A stretch of DNA of 64,000 bases, taken from NCBI GenBank assembly GCA_029262815.1, contig JAJCYS010000038.1, forward strand, positions 15,182 through 79,181, written 5' to 3'. Origin of the DNA: Deltaproteobacteria bacterium (GTDB taxonomy: Bacteria; Bdellovibrionota; JAJCYS01). The position numbers and the translations under genes were made by a program. How positions within the stretch are numbered: position 1 is the first letter of the stretch; each line of letters opens with the position of its first letter. The notes under the pieces are model-generated. The model was not told the origin of the DNA and did no database searches. It saw only the letters and a list, made by a program, of their open reading frames with translations. Shown piece after piece: positions 4,903-62,120 of the stretch.

Positions 4903-6321
4903 CTATTTAGTAGGTGTGTTTTTTGTTTTCTTAACGGCCGTGCTTTTGTCCGAAGATGATTTGGGATCCGGGGTCTCTGAAAAAACCCATAAAACACCCA
5001 GCAAAAGTAGCCCCACTAATATAAGAATTTTCCTTTTCTTTGGGTCTTGCCACCAACGTTTAAATAAACTCTTAGATGTACCCTGTCGATTGGCTTTACC
5101 CTGAGCAAGCCCGAACTGAACATCGTCCCAAGACCTATTCGGATCGAGCGCGAACTTAAAACGAATGCCTGAACTGCCTGTCACTTCATGCCAATTTTTT
5201 TTCTGAGTCACAGGTTTTATAATTCGAGGACGTGTATGTTCCTCCGATGAAATCAATTGCGTTTGGCCTTCCGTGCCTGTTGCCTGCAACACGGCTTCAG
5301 AAGCTTCTGTTTCATGGGTTTCAAATACGAGCATATCCGAAGGCTCGTCCATTTTTGCAATCTCTTGCGTGTATTCATCTTTGAAAGATTTCAGAAGCAG
5401 TGCAGCACAGTCTTCTGACCGACACCCTTCATAGTGTGTATTTAAAATACGATGAAGGTCTTGCGCAAAGATTTTGGCTTGTTGATACCGACGGGGACGT
5501 TCCTTGACGATCGCTTTATTTAGCACTTCCTCTAATTCTGTAACCACTTCAGGACGCACTAACCCCGTATGAGGTGCTTTGAATGTCTCCATCATCTTTA
5601 CAAATTGAATTTCAGAATCCGCTTGAAATAACTTCTTTCCGGTTAACAATTCATACAGTACTACCCCAAGGGAAAACACATCACTTCGTTCGTCCAGGCT
5701 TAATCCCTCTACCTGTTCAGGTGACATATATCCAAATTTTCCTTTGAGTATGCCTGTAGCCGTTTTTTCTGCCTTTGTCTGAAATTTTGCAATTCCGAAG
5801 TCTACAATTTTGATCTCACCACCAAAGGTCATCATTATGTTTTGGGGGTTAATGTCTCTGTGAACGATTTTTAAGGGCTCATCGCCTTCCTGCTTCTCAT
5901 GTGCATAGGCCAACCCTCGGGCTACTTCGAGTACCACATGAAGCGCGACTGGGATGGGTAGCAATGTGTTTTTCTCTTTTTGACGCTTTAGGATCTGACG
6001 CAAATTACGACCAAAAATGTACTCCATGACCAAGTACACATCTTTATTATCTTTAAAAAAATCAATAACTTGCACTATATTTGGATGCACCAACGAAGAC
6101 ATGACCTTTGCCTCAGACAAAAACATACTTTGAAAAGCAGGCGTATCTATAAATTCAGGTAGGATGCGCTTCAGGGCCACCACCTTCTCAAACCCAAAGG
6201 CGCCCATGATCTTTGCTCGAAAGACCTCTGCCATCCCGCCACGGGCAATGAGATCCTGGCGAATAATATAGCGGTTTAATTTTATCACTCGGGTAGACAT
6301 ATACATCTCACCTATCGGCAT
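4903..6321 (-). CDS. Hanks-type Ser/Thr protein kinase, C-terminal membrane anchor
   Basis: HRDINPQNIMM catalytic loop, DFGIAK, GYMSPEQ; hydrophobic stretch ILILVGLLLLGVLWVF near C-terminus. Confidence 0.8.
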   Translation of the reverse strand: MPIGEMYMSTRVIKLNRYIIRQDLIARGGMAEVFRAKIMGAFGFEKVVALKRILPEFIDTPAFQSMFLSEAKVMSSLVHPNIVQVIDFFKDNKDVYLVMEYIFGRNLRQILKRQKEKNTLLPIPVALHVVLEVARGLAYAHEKQEGDEPLKIVHRDINPQNIMMTFGGEIKIVDFGIAKFQTKAEKTATGILKGKFGYMSPEQVEGLSLDERSDVFSLGVVLYELLTGKKLFQADSEIQFVKMMETFKAPHTGLVRPEVVTELEEVLNKAIVKERPRRYQQAKIFAQDLHRILNTHYEGCRSEDCAALLLKSFKDEYTQEIAKMDEPSDMLVFETHETEASEAVLQATGTEGQTQLISSEEHTRPRIIKPVTQKKNWHEVTGSSGIRFKFALDPNRSWDDVQFGLAQGKANRQGTSKSLFKRWWQDPKKRKILILVGLLLLGVLWVFSETPDPKSSSDKSTAVKKTKNTPTK

Positions 6322-7759: not shown

Positions 7760-8486
7760 ACACACATCAAAACCCGTCGCTATCGTCACGGGCGCAAGCA
7801 GCGGCATTGGCCGCGCGACAACTCTATCTCTATCTCGCCAGGGCTACCAGGTCGTGGCAGCTGCCAGACGTCCTGAGCGTTTAGCCGACCTAAAAAAACA
7901 ATGTCCCATATGCACGATTGTGCCAACAGATATTACGGACGAACAATCTGTGGCTCATCTATTTCAACACACAGCTGACACCTTTGGTCGATTGGATCTA
8001 CTCGTTAACAATGCGGGTCGAGGCCTTCAAGCAGCTATTCCTGATATTTCATACGAAGACTGGCTCTCTGTGATGCACACTAATTGTACGGGCGTGTTTT
8101 TGTGTACCAAAGCAGCTCTAGCCTACATGACTCGTGGAGGGGTGATAGTGACCGTCTCCTCTATGGCAGGTCGTTTTGGTGTCCCAAACTATGCTGCATA
8201 CTGTGCTTCGAAACATGCGGTTGAAGGATTTCAAAAAGCTGCCTGGTGGGAATTACGTAAGCGTGGTATTGCATGTCATACCTTGCACCCTGCTCGAGTG
8301 AACACTGCTTTTTTTGAAGACTACGATAAACAACCCGGGCAACGTCAATTGCTCGACCCTCAAGACATAGCGGATGTTATCGTTGCCTATAGTCAACGAA
8401 GATGTGTAAAAGCTTGGGGGTATCTGGTTCGAAATTTTGTTAAACGTCTGAAGCGACTTATATTTTTTAAACGAGGCACAACATGA
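7749..8486 (+). CDS. short-chain dehydrogenase/reductase (SDR)
   Basis: TGASSGIGRAT cofactor motif and YCASKHA (YxxxK). Start set at ATG 7749 (MASEH), overlapping the upstream stop by 11 nt; the ORF-track start at 7707 is probably an extension. Confidence 0.75.
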   Translation: MASEHTSKPVAIVTGASSGIGRATTLSLSRQGYQVVAAARRPERLADLKKQCPICTIVPTDITDEQSVAHLFQHTADTFGRLDLLVNNAGRGLQAAIPDISYEDWLSVMHTNCTGVFLCTKAALAYMTRGGVIVTVSSMAGRFGVPNYAAYCASKHAVEGFQKAAWWELRKRGIACHTLHPARVNTAFFEDYDKQPGQRQLLDPQDIADVIVAYSQRRCVKAWGYLVRNFVKRLKRLIFFKRGTT

Positions 8487-9415
8487 AAAGAACATCTTTT
8501 TCTTTACCCAAAGTAACTGTACATCGGTCACTCAAATCGTTAACCCATCTTAAAGAGATTGCACAGGATGAGAAAGAGCGTATCAACTGGGCTGAGTCCA
8601 TACTTGGCATTCCTAATATCTGGCAAAAAACCCGAGGTGAAAACGTACGTGTTGCTGTGTTGGATACGGGGGTCGATACGTCTCATCCCGATTTATCGGA
8701 TGCAGTGATTAAATCGAAAGATTTCACAGGAGACGGCATCGAAGACAGTCAGGGTCATGGCACACATTGTGCGGGTATTATTGCGGCACGTCAAAACGGC
8801 GTGGGATTTATCGGTGTGGCCCCAAAAGCTGACTTACTCATTGGTAAAGTCCTCAATAATCGGGGATCCGGACAGATGGAATGGATCGCAAATGGCATTG
8901 ATTGGGCCGTGAAGCAGAATGCTCATATCATTTCGATGTCTTTAGGGGGTCCTCAATCTTCTCAAGTACTGTATGAAAGTATTCACAAGGCTTTGATGAA
9001 AGGGGTGTTGATTATTTGCGCTGCTGGTAATGAAGGTACACTGTATCAAAACAGTATTGGCTATCCGGGTCGATATGGCAGTGTCATTACAGTGGCTTCA
9101 CATGATCGCAGCGGCAATCGATCTGGATTTTCTTCTCACGGCGGTGAATTGGACGTCATGGCTCCTGGATCTAATATCTGGTCTACTTATAAAAATGGTG
9201 GATACGCTGAACTCAGTGGCACCTCAATGGCAACCCCATTCGTGGCTGGACTTTCGGCGCTTATTCTCTCAAAGCATTTGAAAAAAGGTGGACGAACGCC
9301 TATTGAAAATAATGAGGATTTGCGGATTCATTTATTACGTATGGCAGGACATCCGGGCTTTCACGATAATAGACGTGGGTATGGGCCCTTATTGCCGTTT
9401 CAGTATTTTACTTAA
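8483..9415 (+). CDS. S8 subtilisin-like serine peptidase
   Basis: Catalytic triad blocks VLDTGVD / HGTHCAG / GTSMATP; no obvious signal peptide. Confidence 0.85.
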   Translation: MKRTSFSLPKVTVHRSLKSLTHLKEIAQDEKERINWAESILGIPNIWQKTRGENVRVAVLDTGVDTSHPDLSDAVIKSKDFTGDGIEDSQGHGTHCAGIIAARQNGVGFIGVAPKADLLIGKVLNNRGSGQMEWIANGIDWAVKQNAHIISMSLGGPQSSQVLYESIHKALMKGVLIICAAGNEGTLYQNSIGYPGRYGSVITVASHDRSGNRSGFSSHGGELDVMAPGSNIWSTYKNGGYAELSGTSMATPFVAGLSALILSKHLKKGGRTPIENNEDLRIHLLRMAGHPGFHDNRRGYGPLLPFQYFT

Positions 9416-9417
9416 TC

Positions 9418-10125
9418 TTAGATATCTATTGTTTTGGGCAGTTCTTGTTTTTTTTCTTCAACCTTTAATTGATCAGGCCGGATGTATTTATAAGTCTTAA
9501 CAGATTTTTCGGGGTTGTAATGTTTTTGGACCCATTCTTCGATGTCCATTTCTTTTTGGTGTGGTTTATAAGATTTTATGATGGTTTCAAACGTACAAGT
9601 TCCTGTACATAGATGGCCAAACTTATGGGAAAAAGATTTTCTCGCTTCTTTGGCGGACTCACCGTGAATAATAATTCTTGCTAATGCGCTAGCAAAACTG
9701 GTTCGATCCGCACCAGCTTTACAATGAATGAGTACTATTTTTTTCTCAGCTTTCACTTTTTTGATGGCTTGAATTAAATCGATTAGTAACTTCTTGTTGG
9801 GAAATCCGCCTGTCGCATTGAGATATGGCTTTGCATCGCCGATATCAAAAAACATGTCATAATAATCGACACCCAATTTTTTGACGACTTTCTTCTCTTC
9901 TTCGTAGTAGGACTGACCTACTTTAACCCCGTTTAGGTTAATCACAGCTTGTACGTTGTTAATCGTTAAAACTTCTTCAAGTTTAGACGCGTCTAATTGA
10001 GCCGTACGAAGAATTTTATGAGGATGGCTGGGATCTCCAACTTGATGGATGTTATTACCGCATCCCGAAAGAGTAACGGCAGCAAATCCAAGATAAACCG
10101 AAACGGTTAGAATATTTGCATTCAT
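9418..10125 (-). CDS. lipoprotein Cys-based protein phosphatase (CX5R, PTP/dual-specificity-like)
   Basis: HCKAGADRTS P-loop; N-terminal signal peptide with lipobox-like LSGC. Confidence 0.65.
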   Translation of the reverse strand: MNANILTVSVYLGFAAVTLSGCGNNIHQVGDPSHPHKILRTAQLDASKLEEVLTINNVQAVINLNGVKVGQSYYEEEKKVVKKLGVDYYDMFFDIGDAKPYLNATGGFPNKKLLIDLIQAIKKVKAEKKIVLIHCKAGADRTSFASALARIIIHGESAKEARKSFSHKFGHLCTGTCTFETIIKSYKPHQKEMDIEEWVQKHYNPEKSVKTYKYIRPDQLKVEEKKQELPKTIDI

Positions 10126-10181
10126 GCCCTACATATCGGGCATAAATATATTTAGTTTAGAATTAATAAATATTTAGTTTT

Positions 10182-10335
10182 CAATAGGTGCCAAAAGGTA
10201 GCCGGGGAACCTAAGAGCTATTCCAAAAGGTAGCCGGGGAACCTAAGAGCTATTCAATAGGTGCCAAAAGGTAGCCGGGGAACCTAAGAGCTATTCAATA
10301 GGTGCCAAAAGGTAGCCGGGGAACCTAAGAGCTAG
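10182..10335. repeat. tandem array of four direct repeats (41, 32, 41, 41 bp), family A, core CCAAAAGGTAGCCGGGGAACCTAAGAGCTA
   Basis: Read directly: units at 10182-10222, 10223-10254 (truncated), 10255-10295, 10296-10335. The last unit abuts the stop codon (10336-10338) of the minus-strand gene. No spacers, so not CRISPR. Confidence 0.9.
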
Positions 10336-12198
10336 TCACTCTTCTTCATGAATTTCCACCCATTGAACTTCTTGAGGTTTCAGAAAACCATGTTTTATCA
10401 ATGCTTCTCTAATAACCTTTTCTACATCAGAGTCCCCATCGTCTCCACCTTCAAACTCTAATCGTTTTTTGAGCAGCTTCGCTTCCTCGTCACTCAACTT
10501 CGCCTTTGCTGCTTTATAGGCATAAGCGGCTATGAACCTCGTTGACCAATTCCTTTTAGTACTCAGCTTCGCTTCGTTCTTAAACTGTGACAACACATTA
10601 TGTGCATCCAGCGCTTCAGCGATGGCTCTCAGTACTTTTGGATCGCGTTCTTCCAATAATTGATTTATGAGGTGCTCTTTCTCTGTATCACCAAATTCTT
10701 TTGATACCCCATAAGCTTGTACTGTCGCTTCACGCAAGTATCTACTCGACGCGGTTAAGAAATCTGCATTTTTTAATTCAGGCATTGCATCATTGTTTTC
10801 AAGTACCTCTTTAATCAATTTAAATACTGTCGAATCGTCTTCAACTTTGAGTTGGTCAAGTAACCACGTTTTTTCATCCGAGGTCAAAGGCGATTTAGTT
10901 TTATATGCCAGCACTGCAGATAGTCGGATTTTCCAGCGGCTTGCGTTCAGAAATTCTTTCGTGCCATATTCTGGCTTTACATTATGCTTCTTAAGCGCTT
11001 GGAGAACAAGATCAATATAAATGTCTTTTTCCTCAGTTTTCAGCCGGTTCAATAAATACTTCTGATCAATTTCCACAAGTGGACTCACCACGTCTTCATA
11101 TGCGTAAATTGCAACAAATCGAATAGCCAGACTCTCTGAATTCAAATGGGTATGCGATTTAAATTCCGATAAAAGATTATGTTTTTTATACAGCTTCACA
11201 TAGGCGGCTACAACGTCAGTGTCTTCATCATATCCCAGAGTATCGTTTTCATCTTCCAGATATTTTTTAAGTAGGTTTTTCTCCTTTTCAGTCGGTTTTT
11301 TTCCCGCCTCATAAGTCTGCAGTGACAACAGTTTTAGATTCCTATTATCAGACCCAAGAAAAATCTTCGATTTCAACTCATCTACTGTGTGATGTTTTTT
11401 TATGGCAACAATAAGCACACCTGTAACATCAGAATCGTCTTCTTCATTCAATTGACTAATTAATTGAGTCTTTTCGTCAGGGGTGAGTGACTCAGCGTTT
11501 TCATACGTATGGGCTGCCGCTTGACGTACTTTCCACCTTTCAGAGCTCAAGTCTTCTTTATTTTTAAACGCAGCTAACGCCTTATGTTTCTTAAGCGTCT
11601 GGATGATAGCATCAGACACATAATCGTCCGATTCAACTTTAAATTGCGCAACAAGCGACACTATTTCTTCTGGCGTCAATGATTCTTTCTTCTCATATGT
11701 TCGAGCCGCAGCAAGTCGAAACGCACTCTTATCTGACTCAAGAGAAACCTGACTCATCATTTCTTTTGGTAACGCATCAAACTTAGCGAGAACTCTCAGA
11801 ATAAGATTCTTGAATCGTTCTTTTTTTTCTTGTTTTAACAAATTGAGGAATGCTTCTTTTTCTTTTGGGGTAATACTTTTGGCTCTCAAGTAACCCCTTG
11901 TCACTTCAAATCGAAGACGTGCATTTTTTGCAGTAAGATATTTGAGCTGATTCAAATTGATTTTGATCCCTTTATCCTTTAGGATACTGAAAACTTTTCT
12001 TATTGACTCTTCGTCAGGCGAACTGATTATCGTGTTTTCCAATCTCAAAATATCTTCGTTTGTTAGTTTACTCTTTTTGGACAGTTGCTCCACGCCTTGA
12101 TTAGATAATGAGGAACCACTCTGTGAGCCACAACCGCTACTAAATACAATCATGAGGGAGAAACAAAGAACTAAACCTATTTTCTTTTTAGACCACAT
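10336..12198 (-). CDS. secreted/lipoprotein with HEAT-like (PBS-lyase type) repeats
   Basis: 620 aa; signal peptide MWSKKKIGLVLCFSLMIVFSSGC; recurring blocks such as RWKVRQAAAHTYENAESLTPDEK...EEDDSDV; paralog of 12380-13267. Confidence 0.6.
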   Translation of the reverse strand: MWSKKKIGLVLCFSLMIVFSSGCGSQSGSSLSNQGVEQLSKKSKLTNEDILRLENTIISSPDEESIRKVFSILKDKGIKINLNQLKYLTAKNARLRFEVTRGYLRAKSITPKEKEAFLNLLKQEKKERFKNLILRVLAKFDALPKEMMSQVSLESDKSAFRLAAARTYEKKESLTPEEIVSLVAQFKVESDDYVSDAIIQTLKKHKALAAFKNKEDLSSERWKVRQAAAHTYENAESLTPDEKTQLISQLNEEDDSDVTGVLIVAIKKHHTVDELKSKIFLGSDNRNLKLLSLQTYEAGKKPTEKEKNLLKKYLEDENDTLGYDEDTDVVAAYVKLYKKHNLLSEFKSHTHLNSESLAIRFVAIYAYEDVVSPLVEIDQKYLLNRLKTEEKDIYIDLVLQALKKHNVKPEYGTKEFLNASRWKIRLSAVLAYKTKSPLTSDEKTWLLDQLKVEDDSTVFKLIKEVLENNDAMPELKNADFLTASSRYLREATVQAYGVSKEFGDTEKEHLINQLLEERDPKVLRAIAEALDAHNVLSQFKNEAKLSTKRNWSTRFIAAYAYKAAKAKLSDEEAKLLKKRLEFEGGDDGDSDVEKVIREALIKHGFLKPQEVQWVEIHEEE

Positions 12199-12292
12199 AT
12201 GTATCCTTTTGTTAACATCTATGCCTTATCGGCACCTACTAACCCATCCTTGATATCAAATGTCGAGTTATTCTACAACCTGAATTTAGTGC

Positions 12293-12341
12293 GGATTCCT
12301 GCCGAGTTTATCCCAGCTGAGGCTGGGGCAGTAATGACAAG
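12293..12341. repeat. family B-like element (GGATTCC...GTAATGACAAG)
   Basis: Resembles the GGATTCCC...GGGAATGACAGG elements at 14177 and 37324; lies directly 5' of a family A copy. Confidence 0.4.
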
Positions 12342-12347
12342 TTTGTA

Positions 12348-12383
12348 TGCCAAAAGGGTGACGGGGAACCTAAGTGTGGCTAG
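12348..12383. repeat. family A repeat, single copy (TGCCAAAAGGGTGACGGGGAACCTAAGTGTGGCTAG)
   Basis: Matches the 10182-10335 units; overlaps the stop codon of CDS 12380-13267. Confidence 0.7.
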
Positions 12384-13267
12384 TTCTGTTCTTCTTCTTC
12401 ATCAGATTCTGGTATCTTGACTCCATGTTTTTCCAACGCTTGACGAATTACATCCTTTACATCAGAAATCCCGTCCACATCTTCATCTTCAAATTTCAAT
12501 TGCTTTAGCAGAAGCGCTTTCTCATCTGGATCTGTTAAGAGTTTATCCGCTGCTTTATATGCATGGGCTGCCGCTCGTCGTATTCTCCAATTTTCAGAAG
12601 CTAAACTGTTTTCGGTTTTAAATTTGGCTAGCGCGTTAAGCTTTACCAGAACCAATAAAATAGTATCGGACACATCTCCGTCCATATCTATTTTATAATG
12701 AGCTATAAGTTTTTCTATCTCTTTCTTAGTAAGCGTTTCTTTCTTTTCGAAATTTTTAGCTGCGGCATATCGGAAGCTACCGTAATCTGACTCAAGAGAT
12801 ACTTGACTCATCATGTCTTTTGGAAACGCATCAAATTTTGCCAGTGTCCTCAGTATTAGGTCTTCAGATATATCATCTTTTTCTTCTTTAAATAATTTGA
12901 GGATAATCTTTTTTTCTTTTAACGTGATACTTTTAGATTCCTTGAAATATACTCTTATCGCCAAATTTCTTACCCTTTCATGTATTGCTTTAAGATACTT
13001 AAGTTGATTCAATTTAATTTTGATACCAGAATCAGTTAATATTTTGAATGCTTTTCCTATTATATTTTCATCAGGCGAACTGACTATCACGTTTTGTAAT
13101 CTTTGAACATCAGCATTTGATAATTCACTCTTTATAGAAATTTGCTTGATTTCTTGAATAGAAGGCAGAGGTAGACTTGAGGCGTCTTTTGTTTTGCTAC
13201 AACCGTAATTGAATATAAATATAAGGGGCAAGCAAAGAACTAAACCCATCTTCTTTTTAAACCTCAT
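12380..13267 (-). CDS. secreted/lipoprotein with HEAT-like repeats (shorter paralog)
   Basis: 295 aa; signal peptide MRFKKKMGLVLCLPLIFIFNYGC; NWRIRRAAAHAYKAADKLLTDPDEK block; 5' leader (CCGATAAGGCATAGATGTTARCAAAAGG) nearly identical to that of 10336-12198. Confidence 0.6.
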   Translation of the reverse strand: MRFKKKMGLVLCLPLIFIFNYGCSKTKDASSLPLPSIQEIKQISIKSELSNADVQRLQNVIVSSPDENIIGKAFKILTDSGIKIKLNQLKYLKAIHERVRNLAIRVYFKESKSITLKEKKIILKLFKEEKDDISEDLILRTLAKFDAFPKDMMSQVSLESDYGSFRYAAAKNFEKKETLTKKEIEKLIAHYKIDMDGDVSDTILLVLVKLNALAKFKTENSLASENWRIRRAAAHAYKAADKLLTDPDEKALLLKQLKFEDEDVDGISDVKDVIRQALEKHGVKIPESDEEEEQN

Positions 13268-13425
13268 ACATACCCTTTTGCTAACATCTATGCCTTATCG
13301 GAATTTAGCAACGAAAAATTAATATCAAAGTCTTTGTCATTCTACAACCTCAATCCCTACCTGAAGCACAACTGGTGGTTTCCCGCACGAATGTTAACGC
13401 CTGCGTTGGGAATAACGGAGCGGGG

Positions 13426-14130
13426 TTAAGTTAGGTATTGAGAAAAGGCCTGTTTAAGTTGCTGAGCACCTTCAGCCTCAATCGGCACCCCATGAGAAAC
13501 TATAATCCTTTCAATAGGCCATTCCAACATATGCTCTAATGATTTTCTAAATGCAGGCTTATCTTTGATTAACCATCGAATCACCCGCGTCGGTCCAAAC
13601 CGTCCATAGGCCCCATAAAATTTGAGCAACATCGCAGCGAAGAAATTCCCAGGTACCCTTTGAATATTAAATGCCAAATCTGTCAATATTAACGTTCGAG
13701 TCAATTTATGAAAAAAGACAACTTCACCCAACTTAGGGATTCCCTGAATCACATGTTGCGCGATATCTCCAGCCCATGCAGATTCAGGCTGTTCATTCAA
13801 TTGGCCATCAAACGTAAAGTCTTTTTTCTTATTGTCCAACCCTGGCGCAGAAAACACCTGTGCATTCGGATATGCCTTTTTATAACTAGGCACAAACACA
13901 TGATGATACCTATTGGGCGCAATGACATAAGCCACTTCACCCAGTGCATCTAATTCTTTTTTTATATCTTCAGTCAATCGAATGGGGGAATGAACCCACA
14001 TCATTCGACTTTCCCCCAACCTCACAACCGTCATACGCGACTTCGTAGGCATGCCCATCATTTTGAATAAACATGTGCCTACCCAGATGTTTTCCCCAAA
14101 TGAATGTAGTTTCATGCCCCCCCCCTGCAT
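13426..14130 (-). CDS. hypothetical protein (possibly DUF4336-like; recalled from memory, unverified)
   Basis: 234 aa ORF. Alternative start at 14115 (MKLHSF) preceded by a G-run. No catalytic motif recognised. Confidence 0.5.
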   Translation of the reverse strand: MQGGGMKLHSFGENIWVGTCLFKMMGMPTKSRMTVVRLGESRMMWVHSPIRLTEDIKKELDALGEVAYVIAPNRYHHVFVPSYKKAYPNAQVFSAPGLDNKKKDFTFDGQLNEQPESAWAGDIAQHVIQGIPKLGEVVFFHKLTRTLILTDLAFNIQRVPGNFFAAMLLKFYGAYGRFGPTRVIRWLIKDKPAFRKSLEHMLEWPIERIIVSHGVPIEAEGAQQLKQAFSQYLT

Positions 14131-29430: not shown

Positions 29431-29474
29431 GGATCCCCGCTCCTTCTTCGTCATCCCTGCCTTCGCAGGGATCC
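29431..29474. repeat. family B-type palindromic element (reverse orientation)
   Basis: GGATCCCCGC...ATCCCTGCCTTCGCAGGGATCC; hairpin ATCCCTG / CAGGGAT with CCTTCG loop. Confidence 0.6.
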
Positions 29475-29486
29475 ATTTCGACTTAC

Positions 29487-29537
29487 TGCCAAAAGGGTGC
29501 CGGGGAACCTTAGTGCTTTGGGGAACCTAAGTGCTTT
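29487..29537. repeat. family A repeat, 1.5 units (TGCCAAAAGGGTGCCGGGGAACCTTAGTGCTTTGGGGAACCTAAGTGCTTT)
   Basis: Same GGGGAACCTAAG core as the 10182-10335 array; here upstream of the plus-strand CDS 29605-31929. Confidence 0.7.
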
Positions 29538-29604
29538 CCCACCTACTTCCAAACAGCAATTCCTGATATACTACTCACAAGAAATTAGATTCGAGGGGGA
29601 AAGA

Positions 29605-47927: not shown

Positions 47928-48431
47928 ATGAATTTAAAAGTTTTATCAGTCGCGTTGGTCGCAAGTTTTTTGGTTGTTACAGCGTGCAGCAGCAGCAAAT
48001 CACCTAAGGGCAAAAGTGATGCCGCAAGTGTTTCTATGTCAATTTCAGCAAAAAACAATAAATTCGAATTGAATGTTGATAAATTTAAGATTGAAGCTTT
48101 GAAGGAAGTCAAAAATACAGATGCTATGAAAGCGCTTAAAGATCTAAACGGTAGCTTCTCTATCGCACGTAAGGCAGAGAATGACATCACAAGTGGCAAA
48201 TGGGTTCATACGGATGGTGACAAAGTACATTCAATTGCATTCACCAACGAAAACAATGTCTGGACATTCGCTAATGAAATCACTGGCGTCAAAGCGGACC
48301 ATGCGATGGCTATCTGGGCAAAACAAAAATCTACCATTACAGCTACAAAAGATGGCGGATTCACCATGTCTTTGACTTTGGCTGACAAAGACACTAAAAA
48401 CGTAACCGTTTCTGTACCGTTTAAGAAGTAA
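47928..48431 (+). CDS. lipoprotein, unknown function
   Basis: RBS AGAGGAGGAAACT before ATG; MNLKVLSVALVASFLVVTACSSS lipobox. Confidence 0.6.
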   Translation: MNLKVLSVALVASFLVVTACSSSKSPKGKSDAASVSMSISAKNNKFELNVDKFKIEALKEVKNTDAMKALKDLNGSFSIARKAENDITSGKWVHTDGDKVHSIAFTNENNVWTFANEITGVKADHAMAIWAKQKSTITATKDGGFTMSLTLADKDTKNVTVSVPFKK

Positions 48432-48462
48432 GTACTAACCTACCCAACTGTAGGTCAAAAAA

Positions 48463-48497
48463 ACCTGGCGTCATTTAATTGGCGTCAGGTTTTTTTA
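48463..48497 (+). terminator. intrinsic terminator (stem with G-U wobbles, T7 tract)
   Basis: ACCTGGCGTCA ... TGGCGTCAGGT followed by TTTTTTT; A-tract upstream. Confidence 0.5.
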
Positions 48498-48605
48498 TTT
48501 GCTCCTCCACAGTGTTCTTTATTGACCTACGGCCTCCACCCTGCTTGGTTTAAATATGGTATTATGGTACTGTGGGAGCTGATTTTAGAGCCGGAGGGTA
48601 GTCAT

Positions 48606-49238
48606 ATGCGTCGGGGAATTCTTTTTTTTACACTTATAGCTGCATGTTTTGCAGGATGCAAATCGGATGTTGAAAAACGCCAAAAGTTGGATGAGTTCAT
48701 GCTCTCCATCACATCAAAAGCTTATATCTTCAAAGGACTGACTGTAACCAAGACTGTTAAGTCAAAAGAAGTGAGAACAGATGGCAAAACCTGGCTGGCA
48801 TATTTTACAGACAAGGTCTTTCCGAACGTTCCAGATGATGTGGAAAGAGATCTTAGGCTGATACTTGATAACAAAGACAAATTCGTAGGATCAGAGTTCA
48901 AACTAGGTGCCGCTGCGTGGCGATATACTCGAAACTCAGAAAAATTCCCTCTCGAAAAAAATGGCATGATTGAGTGGAAACGTGCTGATGGGGGGAGCTT
49001 ATTTAGACCTGATTATTTACAAAACGAAACATATTTTTCATTTTTTGGCCCTTTCGGTACAGGGACAGTTGCCAAAGACGCTGAGTTAGAGGACTACGAA
49101 AAGCCTCTTATTCGTTTTTTTCAAAAAAAGAAACTAGAAGTCACTGCTGAGGACAACAAGCAAGAAAAACTCAAGCTTAATTATTACATAGAAGGCATTG
49201 TTGCTTTCTCTCTCAGCTTTGAGCAAAAGAAAGAGTAA
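48606..49238 (+). CDS. lipoprotein, unknown function
   Basis: Start at ATG 48606 (MRRGILFFTLIAACFAGC) with GGAGGG upstream; the ORF-track start at 48522 is an extension. Confidence 0.6.
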   Translation: MRRGILFFTLIAACFAGCKSDVEKRQKLDEFMLSITSKAYIFKGLTVTKTVKSKEVRTDGKTWLAYFTDKVFPNVPDDVERDLRLILDNKDKFVGSEFKLGAAAWRYTRNSEKFPLEKNGMIEWKRADGGSLFRPDYLQNETYFSFFGPFGTGTVAKDAELEDYEKPLIRFFQKKKLEVTAEDNKQEKLKLNYYIEGIVAFSLSFEQKKE

Positions 49239-49265
49239 ACCATCATCAGAAGAGGAGGACATCTC

Positions 49266-50132
49266 ATGAGATATAGCCGATTTTATTGCCTTCTGGCATG
49301 TTGCATGGTGCTTACAAGCTGCACACGTAACAACACCGAACCGACTGCGAAGTTCTTATCTGTCCTATTTACCTCACATGCGGCACTGCTAAATGCAACC
49401 AAAACGCCAAGCGCTGAGAATGATAAAAATTTAAAATTTTTTAGAATGACACATGGTCGATATTTTGGGAATGAGATGGAAACATTCGCAAAATTTGATG
49501 CTATCTACAAAGGGGAACTTTATTGGCTGTTCAGTCAGGGACCTGATCGTGAAACATACATTTGGATGGTGTACAAACTGCCTGAAGGCATGCCCTCAAC
49601 TCTACAGACAAAAAAAGATGAAAAAGATAAGAAGAAGGATGAAAAAGATAAGGAAAAAGAGGTTGATCCCAAAAAACCACTTGTCGGCTGCTCGCAATTT
49701 ATGATGTCGATTGAAACGACATACGAAGGCGGATTGGCCTATGCCTATGATACTGAGTTGCCCACTATTAGCATGGGGCCTTGGATACAAATGGATTATT
49801 CCGGGGAAAAGCTGGCTATCAAAAAGTTAAGCACAAAATACATTAATTCGTTCTTTACGCTTATCCAGCATGAGAGTGGAAGCATCAAAGCACGTTGGCA
49901 GAGTGACAGCTCTATAGCAAGAATCAAAATATCCCGCGTTAGACCCGTAGAGCCCTATGCCTATGTTGATTTAGTTCCAGCTGAACCAACTGCATACATT
50001 AAGGATGCGCTAAGGAAGAATGTTAGATACACGTTTTTGAAACACACGATAAAAAAATCAATTAAAAAGAAAGATGAGAAGGAAGACACTGAAAAAGATA
50101 AAAAAGACAACAAGGAAACCAAAGAGGATTAG
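49266..50132 (+). CDS. lipoprotein with Lys/Asp/Glu low-complexity segments
   Basis: MRYSRFYCLLACCMVLTSC lipobox; KKDEKDKKKDEKDKEKE internal and KKKDEKEDTEKDKKDNKETKED C-terminal tracts. Confidence 0.6.
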   Translation: MRYSRFYCLLACCMVLTSCTRNNTEPTAKFLSVLFTSHAALLNATKTPSAENDKNLKFFRMTHGRYFGNEMETFAKFDAIYKGELYWLFSQGPDRETYIWMVYKLPEGMPSTLQTKKDEKDKKKDEKDKEKEVDPKKPLVGCSQFMMSIETTYEGGLAYAYDTELPTISMGPWIQMDYSGEKLAIKKLSTKYINSFFTLIQHESGSIKARWQSDSSIARIKISRVRPVEPYAYVDLVPAEPTAYIKDALRKNVRYTFLKHTIKKSIKKKDEKEDTEKDKKDNKETKED

Positions 50133-50135
50133 ACC

Positions 50136-50702
50136 ATGAAATTTCTGATCACTGCCTGTGTGTACAGCATCTTCATCTTTGGAAGTATCGGCTGTAAATC
50201 CAAAAATCCTGCGGATTTAAAACGAACAATCGAAAGTGGGCGTCAATTCTATGAATTGGTGGGCGTCAGCAGTCTTGATTCTGGGTATAAAGATTTACGC
50301 AAAGAAGTCAGTTTCTGGCACTTTGGCCCTAAACGGTTGACAATTCTTTTGAACAAAGCGACACAAGAAGCCACAAAACCAGCAACAGTTGAACGACCTG
50401 ATGGGCTTTTTTATGGGCCGCTCAGTGCATTCAAAAAAATCAAGACTTCTGATCGATTGCTAGCGGGGTCAGACAGATTGAAGGGCAGAACATTAAGACT
50501 CAAAGAGTGGCCCCAGCAAATGAAGGCTTTTATCATGCGTCAGCAAGCAGATGGTAGCCTAAAAAAAGACGTTGAGCTGACATTCAAAAAAGTGGATTTA
50601 CCGAGTGCGAAATTTTCTGTGATTTGGCCGGATCATCTGAAGGCTCCGGAGCCTTTGAAGCCCAAAGAACAAAAGCTGCAACCCATCTCCTCCAAAAAGT
50701 AG
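50136..50702 (+). CDS. lipoprotein, unknown function
   Basis: MKFLITACVYSIFIFGSIGC lipobox; 188 aa. Confidence 0.6.
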   Translation: MKFLITACVYSIFIFGSIGCKSKNPADLKRTIESGRQFYELVGVSSLDSGYKDLRKEVSFWHFGPKRLTILLNKATQEATKPATVERPDGLFYGPLSAFKKIKTSDRLLAGSDRLKGRTLRLKEWPQQMKAFIMRQQADGSLKKDVELTFKKVDLPSAKFSVIWPDHLKAPEPLKPKEQKLQPISSKK

Positions 50703-50731
50703 ACGGATCGCAGCTTTTTGAGTTCAAACTA

Positions 50732-52078
50732 TTATTTTTTCCTCCAATCTTTCCATTTGTTTTTCCAATAGTCTTTGGTCTGCTCCAGCGCACCTTTTTC
50801 TTGTTCTTTAACTTTTGGTTTTAACCCATACTGACGATTAACCTCATTTAAAGTTTTGTTATATTCTGCATTTAACTCATTGATCTCCAGCTGAAAATCC
50901 TGCTTATCTTCAAGAGTAAGGGCGGGTTTCACGTCTTTCTTTTGTCTCTGATTAAATTCGTTCACTTTTTCAAGATATGCTTTTTGTTGTTTTTTACTCT
51001 TTTCTTCAAGTTTAGCAAACGCTTCATCACCTATGTACTTATCACTTTGACTGCTACTTTTGTCATCTTCTTCGGCACTCTTCTCTTGCGAGTTACCATC
51101 CTGTGATTTGCTAGAGTCGTCTTGTTGTTTAGTTTCGCCCTCTTGGGAATTGCCATCATCATTTGATTGGTTGTCGTCTTCTTTAGTTTCTTCAGATTTA
51201 CTATCATCAACTTGTTTTACAGTCTTTTGAACAGGCCCTTTAACAATCGGCTTCCCTTTGCTTAGCAGCTGACCTTTTTTATTAATGGTTACGTCATTTA
51301 TATCCACCGCTTGAAATCCAACTTCCATCGTAAACTGCACGGTTACCGTGCTCGCTTCAGTTACTTTTGCAGCTGCTCGAATAAACCCTTCATTTTTAGT
51401 TGGTGTAAATATAAGTTCAGGCACACGGGGACAAATCTGAGTAAATGAGCATTTCAATGTTACATCTAAATTTTCTTCGTAAGGTTTCCGAACGATGAGC
51501 TCCTCTTTCGCATTTTCCATATCCAAGTGAGTCGGCAATGGACGAATCGGTCCACTCCAAATCAACCCATTAATGGTATCGCCATTTTTGATCTCATATG
51601 GTGAGACCCAAGGATTTTTTGCATCTCGTTTTTCTGCAATAAAATCAACAAACGTACCTTTCTCTTGCTCAGTATCCCAATAAAACATCCGTATTTTGAA
51701 AGCCCCTAGTCCTTCTTTAGGAAAAAAGTACACAAATTTACCGTTCAATGTCGTCTCAGGCTTGCCCTTATACTGGAATGGTTCTCCTAGGAATGACTTA
51801 ACACCCTTATCGACCGCTGCCTGTGCCCTCGTTTTAATAAACGCATAATGATCACTAACCACAGTCCCTTTTAGCTCCTCAGGTAGAGGTACAAACCATT
51901 TATCTGTGTTCTTTTGAGTTAATTCCTCTTTGGTGACCTTTACAACATCTTCTTTCTTCAGCACCTGCATCAGCTTTTTATTAAACTCTTCTTCCTTGAG
52001 AGGAACGCCGCAGCCAACAAACACCAAAATACATACAATTGCAATAAAAAATTCTTGTTTTTTCATATATTTCAACAT
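50732..52078 (-). CDS. lipoprotein with acidic low-complexity linker, unknown function
   Basis: Start at 52078 (MLKYMKKQEFFIAIVCILVFVGC) preceded by AAAGAGGTG; acidic Ser/Asp/Gln-rich linker then Lys-rich coiled-coil-like tail. Confidence 0.6.
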   Translation of the reverse strand: MLKYMKKQEFFIAIVCILVFVGCGVPLKEEEFNKKLMQVLKKEDVVKVTKEELTQKNTDKWFVPLPEELKGTVVSDHYAFIKTRAQAAVDKGVKSFLGEPFQYKGKPETTLNGKFVYFFPKEGLGAFKIRMFYWDTEQEKGTFVDFIAEKRDAKNPWVSPYEIKNGDTINGLIWSGPIRPLPTHLDMENAKEELIVRKPYEENLDVTLKCSFTQICPRVPELIFTPTKNEGFIRAAAKVTEASTVTVQFTMEVGFQAVDINDVTINKKGQLLSKGKPIVKGPVQKTVKQVDDSKSEETKEDDNQSNDDGNSQEGETKQQDDSSKSQDGNSQEKSAEEDDKSSSQSDKYIGDEAFAKLEEKSKKQQKAYLEKVNEFNQRQKKDVKPALTLEDKQDFQLEINELNAEYNKTLNEVNRQYGLKPKVKEQEKGALEQTKDYWKNKWKDWRKK

Positions 52079-52294
52079 GTTACACCTCTTTAGGTTGCGA
52101 AAACTTCTTTTCAGTTGACCATAAAAAATAAGTTTAAGCAATTTAAAAAACACTAATCGTTTTATCGGTTATTTAGCTAATAGTTTTAACAGTTTATGCA
52201 TCTATTTAATATTTAATGAATTTATATACTTACACTAAATATTTTATTTATAAATGTCGATCAGACGGTGAGGTTTCATGAAGGAGGGGGGAAG

Positions 52295-53023
52295 ATGAGC
52301 TATTTCAACAACCGTTTGGTGGTGTGTGCGTTTTTGGGCGCGGGGCTGCTGATATTGCCTGCCCAAAGCAATGCGTTCCAACCTAATGACGCTGGCCTTG
52401 CAACACCCGACAACTTTGATCAGATGCCGATTCAGTACCACAACGGCTCACAAGCAAGCCCCTATGACGCTCCTCAAGGTTATGACATGCCCCAACGAGA
52501 TCTCCCTGCAGCTCCTGAGATTCCGCGACAGCCCGCTCAATTCCCGACTGCGCCTAACTTGAACGCCCCCCAAGATATTCAACAGGGCTATGATGCTCCG
52601 CCGCAGTACAACAGCTACCCACAGAATCAAAACCCGTACCCTGATGTTCAACGAGATCCCAACAGTGATTATATGGATAAACAGCCCCCCCCTAATATGC
52701 AACAAGGATATGACTCACTGCCTCAAAGTAACAGCTACCCTCAAACTCAAAACCCCTATCCAGATGTTCAACGAGACCCTGAATCACTCAATGATTCTGA
52801 TCCGTTTGATCAAAATCAATATGACCAAAACCCTCAAGATTATCCTTCTGAATTCATTGATTCAGGAGAACCAGACGCAAATCTACCTCAGGCGGATCGA
52901 CTACCTCTGCAAACACCTTTTGAGCCCCCACAGATTGATGATTTCTCACCTGAGCAAGAGTTACAAAATCCACAACCCTATCCTGAATTTGACCAACAAC
53001 AGCTGGATGACATTCGACAGTAA
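52295..53023 (+). CDS. secreted Pro/Gln/Tyr/Asp-rich repeat protein
   Basis: Start at ATG 52295 after GAAGGAGGGGGG; signal peptide ...LPAQSNA; internal direct repeat QQGYDxxPQxNSYPQxQNPYPDVQRDP occurs twice. Confidence 0.6.
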   Translation: MSYFNNRLVVCAFLGAGLLILPAQSNAFQPNDAGLATPDNFDQMPIQYHNGSQASPYDAPQGYDMPQRDLPAAPEIPRQPAQFPTAPNLNAPQDIQQGYDAPPQYNSYPQNQNPYPDVQRDPNSDYMDKQPPPNMQQGYDSLPQSNSYPQTQNPYPDVQRDPESLNDSDPFDQNQYDQNPQDYPSEFIDSGEPDANLPQADRLPLQTPFEPPQIDDFSPEQELQNPQPYPEFDQQQLDDIRQ

Positions 53024-59603: not shown

Positions 59604-59607
59604 TAAA

Positions 59608-59721
59608 GTTGCGCTGTACTACTCTCCCACAGGGCTACCCCTGCAGTACCATCGTCGCTGAGGAGCTTAACTGCCGAGTTCGGAATGGGATCGGGTGTTT
59701 CCTCCTTGCTATCAGGACAAC
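59608..59721 (-). rRNA. rrf: 5S ribosomal RNA (solitary)
   Basis: Minus-strand sequence ...CCGAUCCCAUUCCGAACUCGGCAGUUAAGCUCCUCAGCGACGAUGGUACUGCAGGGGUAGCCCUGUGGGAGAGUAGUACAGCGCAAC aligns block-for-block with bacterial 5S (CCGAACUC, GUUAAGC, CGAUGGUACUG, GGGAGAGUAG). Ends are +/-5 nt. Confidence 0.85.
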
Positions 59722-59726
59722 GAAAT

Positions 59727-59756
59727 CAAGGTATCAAGCGACCCCTCTCAAGTCAA
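59727..59756 (-). promoter_or_regulatory. candidate sigma70-type promoter for the 5S gene (TTGACT -35, weak TACCTT -10)
   Basis: On minus strand: AAAAGCTTGACTTGAGAGGGGTCGCTTGATACCTTGATTTCG then the 5S 5' end; spacing and -10 are imperfect. Confidence 0.3.
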
Positions 59757-59834
59757 GCTTTTGTTTGTTATACTAGGGTTGCACGATTAACACGTTCTCT
59801 ATCTGGCACGTGCGTGTTTCGAACGGGATGTTCT

Positions 59835-62120
59835 ATGACTGAAAAAGCCCAACGATGGGTATTTATCTTGTTTCTACTTATCGGGTCCTTATGGGTGGGT
59901 CCCCGGTGGATTCCCGCAGAGTGGCTCAAAGAAACCCTCGAGTCCTGGGTCACCACACATATGGGATTTACCCTCCAAACGGACAGTGTGGCTCTGTCGT
60001 TATTTCCGACCACCCAGCTCGTATGCAAAGACGTCACATTTTCTGGCGCCCCCCTTCCGTTCTCGCTCCAGACTACTGGCACCATCTCGCGGATGATACT
60101 GAAGTTTTCTATGATTAAAACGGCTTTGACCGGCCGACCCTTTGTCAACGTCCTGCTTGACGGTGCTCAGCTTGAAATTACGCCACATGAGCCACCCAAA
60201 GACCCCCTTCCCTACGTTGTCTTATCTTCACTCTTTATTAGGTCGAGTGACGCAGTCCTAACCCTAAAAAAAAACCGTATCCCCACAACCCTACATTCAT
60301 TTCAAATTGTTTTTGAGCCTAAGCGTAAAACGGCAACCTTACAAGGTGATATAACCCTACCCGAGTTTGCGCCAAAACCTGGATCACGTTTATCCACACA
60401 GATGACTTTGAACGGTTCAGTTGAGGCCCTCGAAGACGGCTCTCTATACATCCCACAGCTCAGGTTCCGAGCCAAAAATTTTAGCTACGTTTCTCTCGCC
60501 TACCAAATCAAACAAGGTCGAGGCCCTTTCTTTATGACCGCTTCGGGACTCTCTCTCTCTCGAGAAGGGTCTGGCACGGTAAAATCCCTTTTTCTCGGAC
60601 TCAATGACCACACCTTACAACTCACTGGACAATTTCAGACAACGCCTTTTCGTTTTATCGGACGGCTAGCCCCTTTTGAAACAACATTCAAAGACTTCCC
60701 TTTCGAATTGCTTCAAGATACGTTCCCAGGTGCTTCGGGAATAATCACCTTAAACAACCCGATAGGGCTGTCCTACACACACAGTCCCAAATCCGAATTG
60801 CAAATGGATCTTAAGGGGATCGCATTAAAAAATCTGTCTTGGCCCACACCTTGGTTCCTGCTTGAAGAGCCCGAGGCACGCCTATCTGGAAAACTATTTT
60901 TTCATCCCAAAGCAGGAATTCAACCATCGCGAATTGAATGGCGTAACGGTAAACTTGAGCTTGCACACAGTACATTGCTTATGGAAATCTCTACAGAGCC
61001 TGATGTAAACCGCACAGAAATTACACTTCAGCCTTTTGAACTTGATCTTTCACAAATTCCTCAGATCTTTGAAACGTTTCTTGGGTTCAAACACACGAGC
61101 GGCTTACTCACCAGTGCCACACCGTTGACCATTTCTAAAACAGAAAATACAACCGCGTTAGCAGGTCGATTACGAATCGATGAGGGCATAGGCACATGGC
61201 AAAAACAATGGCAGGTAGCAGGACTCACAGCTGATATGGTATTGGGGACACCAAAATCAGATCTCACTTTATCCATAAACAGCCTGACTCAAAAAAATGG
61301 GTGGCAACTCAAAAACCTTACTTTGCAAGGCAACCTGGCTCAAACAGGCGTATGGGAACTCAATCGATTCGCCACACAATTTAAAGACGGTACAGTTGTT
61401 CTAAAGGGCGGTGTGTTTGATCCAATTGCACATACGTTTACAGCAAAGTCTTTAAAAGGTTTTTTTGATCTTACAAAGTCTCGCGTACTCAATCATGTTG
61501 CTCCAAAAGCAAATTTAAGTTTAACGGGCAATCTTCGTTTTCAGATTAACCGCATGGGCATCCCGCTCACCCCGACGACACATCAGCCCAAATGGCATAA
61601 AATGGTCGGAGCATTTGAAAGTGAAATTGCGAATTTTTCCTGGCGTGACTTTGATATGCAAACCCCTTTTACAGAGCTGCTCGAATCATATTATGATCAG
61701 CTGCGAACTCGACGGGTTCGATCGCGTACCCTCGCAACTGAAACCATTCCCACATTAGAAACAACGTACAAAGGTACCATGAAGGGACAATTTTCCTCTC
61801 AGAATGTGATTGTCTCAGAGAGTACATTTTTCAATGCCACTAGTACATTCACCTTAAAAGGGAAAACAACAAAACTACCCGTGCCCCTTCAAAAAACACG
61901 TATAGATTTAAATGGCACGTACATCATCCACAAACCGGGATTTGCGGACCCTGTTATTCAAGAAATTCTACTAGATCCGAATCGGAACCTTCGCATTCCT
62001 GTTCAAATCCAAGGCACCCTTGGTAGACCTGATGCCTATTTTTTAAAAGCTGAAGCGTACCGAACTTTTGATCGACGTATTCAATCGCACCACATAGCCA
62101 AACCAACTAAGGGGCAATAA
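59835..62120 (+). CDS. AsmA-family protein (membrane-anchored, beta-rich envelope protein)
   Basis: Start at ATG 59835 (MTEKAQRWVFILFLLIGSLWV, single N-terminal TM); about 760 aa, repetitive beta-strand-like composition. The ORF-track start at 59685 overlaps the 5S gene. Confidence 0.6.
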   Translation: MTEKAQRWVFILFLLIGSLWVGPRWIPAEWLKETLESWVTTHMGFTLQTDSVALSLFPTTQLVCKDVTFSGAPLPFSLQTTGTISRMILKFSMIKTALTGRPFVNVLLDGAQLEITPHEPPKDPLPYVVLSSLFIRSSDAVLTLKKNRIPTTLHSFQIVFEPKRKTATLQGDITLPEFAPKPGSRLSTQMTLNGSVEALEDGSLYIPQLRFRAKNFSYVSLAYQIKQGRGPFFMTASGLSLSREGSGTVKSLFLGLNDHTLQLTGQFQTTPFRFIGRLAPFETTFKDFPFELLQDTFPGASGIITLNNPIGLSYTHSPKSELQMDLKGIALKNLSWPTPWFLLEEPEARLSGKLFFHPKAGIQPSRIEWRNGKLELAHSTLLMEISTEPDVNRTEITLQPFELDLSQIPQIFETFLGFKHTSGLLTSATPLTISKTENTTALAGRLRIDEGIGTWQKQWQVAGLTADMVLGTPKSDLTLSINSLTQKNGWQLKNLTLQGNLAQTGVWELNRFATQFKDGTVVLKGGVFDPIAHTFTAKSLKGFFDLTKSRVLNHVAPKANLSLTGNLRFQINRMGIPLTPTTHQPKWHKMVGAFESEIANFSWRDFDMQTPFTELLESYYDQLRTRRVRSRTLATETIPTLETTYKGTMKGQFSSQNVIVSESTFFNATSTFTLKGKTTKLPVPLQKTRIDLNGTYIIHKPGFADPVIQEILLDPNRNLRIPVQIQGTLGRPDAYFLKAEAYRTFDRRIQSHHIAKPTKGQ

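Follow-up and report, generated by a model that had tools for sequence, protein, structure and literature searches.

Helical repeat proteins of the PBS-lyase HEAT-like type, which fall into the Pfam family HEAT_2 and include E. coli YibA (PDB 1oyz) and CpcE/F, are built from units of about 31 residues with two helices each, and YibA and CpcE/F are cytoplasmic. Armadillo proteins such as importin-alpha, the catenins and designed versions have a unit of about 42 amino acids (aa) and are eukaryotic, cytosolic or nuclear proteins. In PP2A, the scaffold A subunit (PR65) exemplifies the eukaryotic arrangement of a HEAT scaffold with a phosphatase. Here we analyse two adjacent genes, A and B, in a 64,000-nucleotide (nt) stretch of contig JAJCYS010000038.1 from a Deltaproteobacteria bacterium of the lineage Bdellovibrionota; "the window" below means this whole stretch, which our paralogue, motif and RNA scans covered, in six frames where translated. 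A first-pass annotation of the DNA had described the pair as recently duplicated HEAT-like lipoproteins of unknown function. We find a real and fairly ordinary, lineage-specific family of two orphan HEAT/ARM-like repeat (lipo)proteins. Its members are probably co-regulated, membrane-tethered alpha-solenoid scaffolds that bind partners in the envelope, and they would derive from an old duplication of a complete gene unit.

Paralogy and repeat architecture

Both open reading frames (ORFs) exist exactly as annotated, with 620 and 295 aa, consecutively on the minus strand in the order B, A with a gap of 181 nt. BLASTP aligned the two products with 52% identity over 281 aa (B residues 1–281, E 2e-78), far beyond chance, so that judged by their sequences A and B are clearly paralogues and the tandem paralogy proposed earlier holds. 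Further, weaker alignments between the two were offset by whole repeats and revealed an internal periodicity.

We delimited the repeat units by a recurring W.[IV]R..A...Y motif. A comprises eight units of 64–71 aa and B comprises three. The units follow the pattern ...R..A...Y......T..EK..L...LK.E.D..V...I...L.KH..L...K....L.S.., in which R4, Y11, E21 and E32 are near-invariant. A hidden Markov model (HMM) of the unit, run on all six frames of the window, found exactly 8 + 3 domains, a recovery that is by construction. Neither this HMM nor phmmer on the six-frame ORFs detected further paralogues within the 64 kb. The units are preceded by a distinct region that spans residue 24 to about residue 91, first a tether of 10–15 residues after Cys23 and then a helical cap. 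Some of the best-conserved stretches of the pair lie in the cap (SSPDE and GIKI.LNQLKYL), and another lies in unit 1 (LAKFDA.PK.MMSQVSLESD).

Pairwise comparison of the units revealed a clear correspondence: B1 matches A1 (58% identity), B2 matches A2 (48%) and B3 matches A8 (52%, versus 39% for A3), while non-corresponding units are 19–41% identical. B thus reads as the cap, unit 1, unit 2 and an A8-like terminal unit, and A carries five further internal units of old origin, which A gained by expansion or B lost.

In the protein database, A is recorded as P0001, a single sequence from a single contig. B is recorded as P0005 with 289 aa and a start at Met7, and the exact 295-aa form is absent from the protein collection. 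However, the Shine-Dalgarno site, the leader and the N-terminus of the longer form align with those of A (13250–13267), which supports a start at 13267 and a length of 295 aa; the recorded start would be six codons too late.

Age of the duplication

The first-pass annotation considered the duplication recent, and the codon comparison contradicts this. Across 272 aligned codons, A and B share 65% of their nucleotides and 52% of their third positions, with 0.34 nonsynonymous substitutions per site (dN) and about 1.4 synonymous ones (dS), a value near saturation. Since dS is that high and both protein and third-position identity stand at 52%, the duplication is old. The same annotation had named a decaying short copy as grounds for giving up its reading. 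B has an intact ORF and dN/dS is about 0.24, so it is not a decaying pseudogene, and both copies are kept by purifying selection.

Fold

The Pfam model HEAT_2 (PF13646) matched A with 33.5 bits (E 5e-8, gathering threshold 27.7) but B with only 14.1 bits (E 0.06). When the units were scanned singly, one of the eleven matched (E 0.002) and the rest gave noise. On the sequence level, the HEAT-like signal annotated earlier is therefore real but weak. For neither protein did we obtain a match in NCBIfam or PADLOC, or to the Pfam Arm family at E values up to 1, and a profile of the repeat unit retrieved nothing better than E 0.4 from the PDB sequences. That is, no well-characterised family claims A or B, in agreement with the earlier statement of unknown function.

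The AlphaFold2 (AF2) model of B, computed from a four-row alignment that was built with non-overlapping pieces of A, reached a mean predicted local distance difference test (pLDDT) score of 81.8 and a predicted template modelling (pTM) score of 0.74. Each unit is modelled as three helices of 12–14 residues and a short linker helix. In the predicted structures, tandem helix-turn-helix units of A and B stack as an alpha-solenoid. The fold class is clear, and a specific relative does not emerge.

Export signal

The N-termini of A and B align as M[WR][SF]KKK[IM]GLVLC...G-C. Both contain a KKK n-region, a 13-residue hydrophobic stretch and G-C at positions 22–23, followed by a Ser/Gly/Pro-rich stretch, and the aligned lipobox cysteine is the sole cysteine of mature A as well as of mature B. 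Neither protein has Asp at position +2. In E. coli, lipoproteins without Asp at +2 are sorted to the outer membrane. Under this rule A and B would be outer membrane lipoproteins, though the rule is that of E. coli and may not be that of this lineage.

Conserved upstream region

Immediately upstream of the ATG, 30 of 35 nt are identical between A and B, as the first-pass annotation had noticed, and these include a perfect 20-nt block, CCGATAAGGCATAGATGTTA. This block, itself non-coding, occurs in the window only in the two leaders (0 expected). No other identical run shared by the two gene units is as long, even with the coding sequences included. A Shine-Dalgarno-like site is located 5 nt before the ATG (AAGGA in A, AAGGG in B). 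Conservation extends to about −85 and includes a stretch of 12 nt without mismatch in AGGTTGTAGAATRAC (R = A/G) as well as the block TTTGATAT. The leader blocks were not found elsewhere in the window. No RNA-structure signal was detected in the leaders, and Rfam returned no match for them, with 5S rRNA as its only hit elsewhere in the window. Because synonymous sites are saturated, conservation of the leader implies constraint, from a role as promoter, operator or 5'-UTR, or else gene conversion at this site, not youth. We infer that A and B may be co-regulated through this region.

Repeats behind the stop codons

A repeat with a core of about 30 nt, CTTAGGTTCCCCGGCTACCTTTTGG, starts 6–8 nt after both stop codons; its degenerate form is C[AT]CT[AT]AGGTTCCCCG.C..CCTTTTGGC. 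As annotated before, both stop codons are marked by such repeats; four copies follow A and one follows B. The array behind A begins at the stop codon and takes up most of the 210 nt before the next gene, which encodes a putative phosphatase. Altogether the window contains six core matches, versus none in shuffled sequences. Because a third locus at 29.5 kb adjoins an exbD-like gene, the repeat is a dispersed intergenic element and not a tag specific to A and B. There it lies after the exbD-like gene, which is encoded on the other strand, and its orientation relative to that gene is opposite. Given its equal offset from both stop codons, the repeat belonged to the duplicated gene unit, and the four-copy tandem array of a 41-nt unit behind A is the only recent event.

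The repeats fold no better than shuffled sequences (z +0.83 for the array and −1.0, −0.37 and +0.61 for single copies), and no Rfam family matched them. Small hairpins lie 10–25 nt beyond the core at two of the three loci: a 6-bp GC-rich one at 12312–12327 beyond the B copy (CCCAGC-CTCA-GCTGGG) and an 8-bp one at 29453–29472 beside the third locus (ATCCCTGC-GAAG-GCAGGGAT). Core and hairpin may together make up a composite element. One metagenome contig contained an exact core match, which looks fortuitous, being located within a 301-aa ORF and not extending past the core used in the search. A TGGCAC within the repeat was considered as a sigma-54 site and rejected by eye, having no GC element at the right spacing.

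Distribution and host lineage

Only A and B came up in an exhaustive profile search that covered 1.84 billion representatives of about 15 billion proteins, and a word-indexed search of 5.8 billion proteins with A recovered only A itself. Genome contigs searched with the A + B alignment, among which the genome of the window itself did not turn up, viral contigs and plasmids (the last by tblastn) yielded no relatives either. The genome-wide paralogue count is two, if the full proteome of this genome sits in the searched collection.

Other proteins of the window likewise show that the lineage is isolated. The closest relatives of the TrkH encoded upstream of B are 60, 58 and 51% identical and all metagenomic; the following ones are at most 49% identical, several of them Desulfuromonadales-like. 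For GlyA, no match among 185,579 species genomes exceeds 59% identity, and the best ones come from scattered phyla. Of 20 other window proteins checked, 11 lack a Pfam match. The metagenome contig with the closest TrkH (60%) carries trkA-trkH and no comparable downstream gene; a 639-aa neighbour on it was considered as a relative of A and rejected as unrelated. The contig with the second-closest TrkH ends at trkH. Since the host lineage is poorly sampled and the window is rich in proteins without Pfam match, the orphan status of A and B is not very surprising and is expected for fast-evolving envelope proteins of an isolated lineage. The pair had been called unusual: it does lack detectable relatives, but the many orphan envelope proteins of this genome temper the term.

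Proposed function

We favour an explanation in which a complete gene unit, consisting of the upstream control region, the coding sequence and a copy of the 3' repeat, would have been duplicated in tandem long ago. Each product would be exported, probably with a lipid anchor at Cys23, and would sit on a flexible tether of 10–15 residues. Its body would consist of the N-terminal helical cap and the 64-residue units, each with three helices and a short linker helix, which may represent a double, partly degenerate HEAT/armadillo-like repeat. Cap, units 1 and 2 and the last unit are common to both proteins, with the five extra internal units confined to A. The resulting elongated helical surface, tethered to an envelope membrane, would bind partner proteins or peptides. 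The paralogues would offer one scaffold in two lengths, short and long, with the conserved 5' region setting a common control. A shared partner could be recognized by the shared parts, and the five extra units of A might add reach or binding sites. We infer the binding function from the fold class, because alpha-solenoids act as binding scaffolds, and envelope location and lipidation from the N-termini. The role of protein-binding adaptor suggested earlier is reasonable on the same analogy.

Several observations weigh against this explanation. The model of A, predicted from the single sequence, is all-alpha but of low confidence (pLDDT 61.5), and the alignment rows behind the better model of B came solely from A and B. 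Structural matches were generic, with template modelling (TM) scores of at most 0.43, large root-mean-square deviations and a best Foldseek E value of 1.5e-3. Tested against a strict lipobox ([LVI][ASTVI][GAS]C) and a relaxed PROSITE-type pattern, A (FSSG-C, with Ser at −3) passes the relaxed pattern and fails the strict one, and B (FNYG-C) fails even the relaxed pattern because of Asn at −3. The earlier designation as lipoproteins is therefore solid for A under the relaxed pattern and weaker for B; from the N-terminal sequences, lipidation is likely for A and plausible for B. (Ser at −3 also occurs in another putative lipoprotein of the window, FGSIG-C at 50136.) Co-regulation lacks a promoter counterpart, in that a scan for sigma-70-type promoters found no site in either upstream region and counts not above those in shuffled sequences. 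Finally, no feature in the sequences of A and B points to a specific partner or ligand.

Neighbouring genes

The coordinates of the locus are compiled in Table 1. A phosphatase and an S8 protease had been reported to flank the pair. Both are present; however, both lie on its downstream side, and the upstream neighbour of B encodes a DUF4336 protein (13426–14130), followed by trkH, trkA, glyA and then fabF-/fabG-like fatty-acid synthesis genes. The top NCBIfam model for the S8 protease is a type VII secretion mycosin (213 bits, cut-off 279); no signal peptide is obvious in the protein, and its ORF begins within the end of the SDR gene before it, with an overlap of 4 nt.

The phosphatase gene, A and B are low in G+C at third codon positions (GC3; 0.335, 0.357 and 0.291, respectively, versus typically 0.40–0.47 in the rest of the window). 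This block fits accessory or fast-evolving genes, and no mobility genes were found near it among the window proteins scanned.

Table 1. Features of the A/B locus and related elements in the window
Feature	Position	Strand	Description
Gene A	10336..12198	-	620 aa ORF
Gene B	12380..13267	-	295 aa ORF, 888 nt
Gene A product parts			putative signal sequence with FSSG-C23; Ser/Gly-rich tether; cap ~33-91; units 92-620; acidic tail
Gene B product parts			FNYG-C23 N-terminus; cap as in A; units 96-295; acidic tail
A upstream region	12199..12285	-	blocks AGGTTGTAGAAT.AC (~-83), TTTGATAT (~-60), CCGATAAGGCATAGATGTTA (-34..-15)
B upstream region	13268..13354	-	three blocks shared with A
Repeat array behind A	10180..10338	-	four tandem copies, periods 41, 41, 32 nt, 98-100% identical
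Repeat behind B	12339..12382	-	single diverged copy; core 12350-12374, 3 mismatches
Third repeat locus	29478..29541	-	1.5 copies; core 29489-29513; intergenic
Cys-phosphatase-like lipoprotein gene	9418..10125	-	235 aa; downstream neighbour of A, same strand
S8 protease gene	8483..9415	+	Peptidase_S8, E 3e-61; convergent with phosphatase gene
Orphan lipoprotein-like ORFs	47928, 48522/48564, 49266, 50136	+	lipobox-like N-termini
Orphan lipoprotein-like ORFs	50732-52153	-	lipobox-like N-termini

Elsewhere in the window, several ORFs that lack a Pfam match and begin with lipobox-like sequences are clustered (47928–52153) in a second low-GC stretch (0.40), in which a 473-aa ORF has a GC3 of 0.348; orphan lipoproteins seem to be numerous in this lineage. 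At 4903–6321, the minus strand encodes a eukaryote-type Ser/Thr protein kinase (Pkinase, E 5e-44). Many PADLOC kinase models match it, for example PD-T4-6, probably through generic kinase similarity and not as part of a defence system. A solitary 5S rRNA gene (59606–59722, minus strand, 95.7 bits) has no 16S or 23S rRNA match beside it in the 64-kb window, and its 5' end is overlapped by about 38 nt by an 811-aa ORF on the opposite strand (59685–62120, plus strand) without Pfam or NCBIfam match. A 94-nt direct repeat with 77% identity and a spacing of 120 nt (52566–52779) lies inside the ORF 52268–53023, which has no Pfam match, and this indicates a tandem repeat within coding sequence.

Alternative explanations

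The phosphatase gene next to A offers another view of the pair. A and B might be scaffold or regulatory subunits of this enzyme, holding it at the membrane and presenting its substrates, as the A subunit does in PP2A. The two genes are on the same strand, only 210 nt and no terminator-like site apart, and the predicted product has a canonical lipobox (LSG-C) together with an intact Cys-phosphatase motif of the HCX5R (CX5R) type, HCKAGADRT. Myotubularin, DSP, PTP-like phytase and polymorphic-toxin DSP-PTPase families of Pfam match it, every one below its cut-off. Like A and B, it is a near-orphan (two database relatives, at about 30% identity), and it shares their low GC3. A Cys-phosphatase outside the cytoplasm is in itself an unusual enzyme. 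But the link consists of adjacency in one genome only, the phosphatase gene does not carry the conserved leader, and the structural match to PP2A is no better than that to dozens of other solenoids. A functional partnership is possible, and the subunit role we consider unlikely. A wider version of the idea is more doubtful still. The whole segment from 9.4 to 13.3 kb would then form an envelope signalling module of its own, restricted to the lineage. In it, the long and the short solenoid, as scaffolds of a 64-residue helical repeat not seen before, would dock the Cys-phosphatase and select its substrates at the membrane, with the leader as a common regulatory switch. If true, bacteria would have an extracytoplasmic equivalent of the way in which eukaryotes combine a HEAT scaffold with a phosphatase.

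Equally unlikely, in our view, are surface-exposed antigens or adhesins with variable repeat numbers, of the kind that spirochaetes and other bacteria associated with hosts or prey possess as families of paralogous lipoproteins. Eight versus three repeats in a paralogous lipoprotein pair of low GC3 would suit such a role, as would the hyper-recent tandem amplification adjoining gene A and the many other orphan lipoproteins in the window. Against this role, the repeat units are old, as the 19–41% identity between non-corresponding units indicates, and selection between A and B is purifying, not diversifying.

We give slightly less credit to immunity or decoy proteins directed against an envelope-acting toxin, as repeat-type immunity proteins occur in polymorphic-toxin and type VI loci. 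No PADLOC model matched A or B, and no toxin domain, secretion-system, Rhs/VgrG/PAAR or mobile-element gene was present among the scanned window proteins (about one fifth of the ORFs of at least 150 aa, at 33.3–46.2 and 57.8–59.1 kb, fell outside the scan). The neighbouring phosphatase does resemble the polymorphic-toxin DSP-PTPase family PF22785 (E 5e-4, below cut-off), but it is a lipoprotein of the same cell and not a fused toxin tip. What further speaks for an immunity role is the predicted envelope location, the binder fold of a repeat protein and the fast evolution of a paralogous family.

That B, or both genes, should be a non-functional remnant or a mis-called ORF is very improbable: the 289-aa database version, the poor lipobox of B and its HEAT_2 score below cut-off hint in this direction, against an intact ORF of 888 nt, a conserved Shine-Dalgarno site and start context, a dN/dS of about 0.24 at saturated dS, a confident AF2 model and clean unit boundaries (cap + A1 + A2 + A8-like).

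Comparison with known systems

As tethered scaffolds, A and B would add one more lineage-specific envelope repeat family. They would exemplify how alpha-solenoid lipoproteins evolve by duplication of a gene unit and by a change of repeat number from three to eight or the reverse, with the leader retained under constraint, and a candidate regulatory motif is hereby flagged for a poorly sampled bacterial lineage. The pair does not open a long-standing question; a partnership with the adjacent extracytoplasmic Cys-phosphatase would raise its interest.

The 3' element resembles repetitive extragenic palindromic (REP)-like repeats in being short (about 30–41 nt) and intergenic, in its position just after stop codons, in its occurrence at no fewer than three loci within 64 kb and in its capacity for tandem amplification. 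It differs from them in that its core forms no stable stem-loop (z −1.0 to +0.8), in its orientation to the upstream gene, which changes at the third locus, and in having no Rfam match.

With regard to the proteins, the parallel to PR65 is a functional analogy only and no homology, and the enzyme next to A is of the Cys-based PTP/DSP-like type and not a PPP metallophosphatase. The likeness to armadillo proteins is structural only (TM 0.3–0.4), without a match to Pfam Arm; a unit of 64 aa stands against one of about 42, and A and B are predicted bacterial envelope proteins whereas armadillo proteins belong to the cytosol or nucleus of eukaryotes. Close, too, is the HEAT_2 family, from which the pair differs in several respects: B scores below the cut-off, a single unit of eleven matches by itself and no sequence relative was found. 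In place of the two-helix unit of about 31 residues, A and B would repeat 64 residues with three helices and a linker helix, and unlike the cytoplasmic YibA and CpcE/F they are predicted to be exported and probably lipid-anchored.

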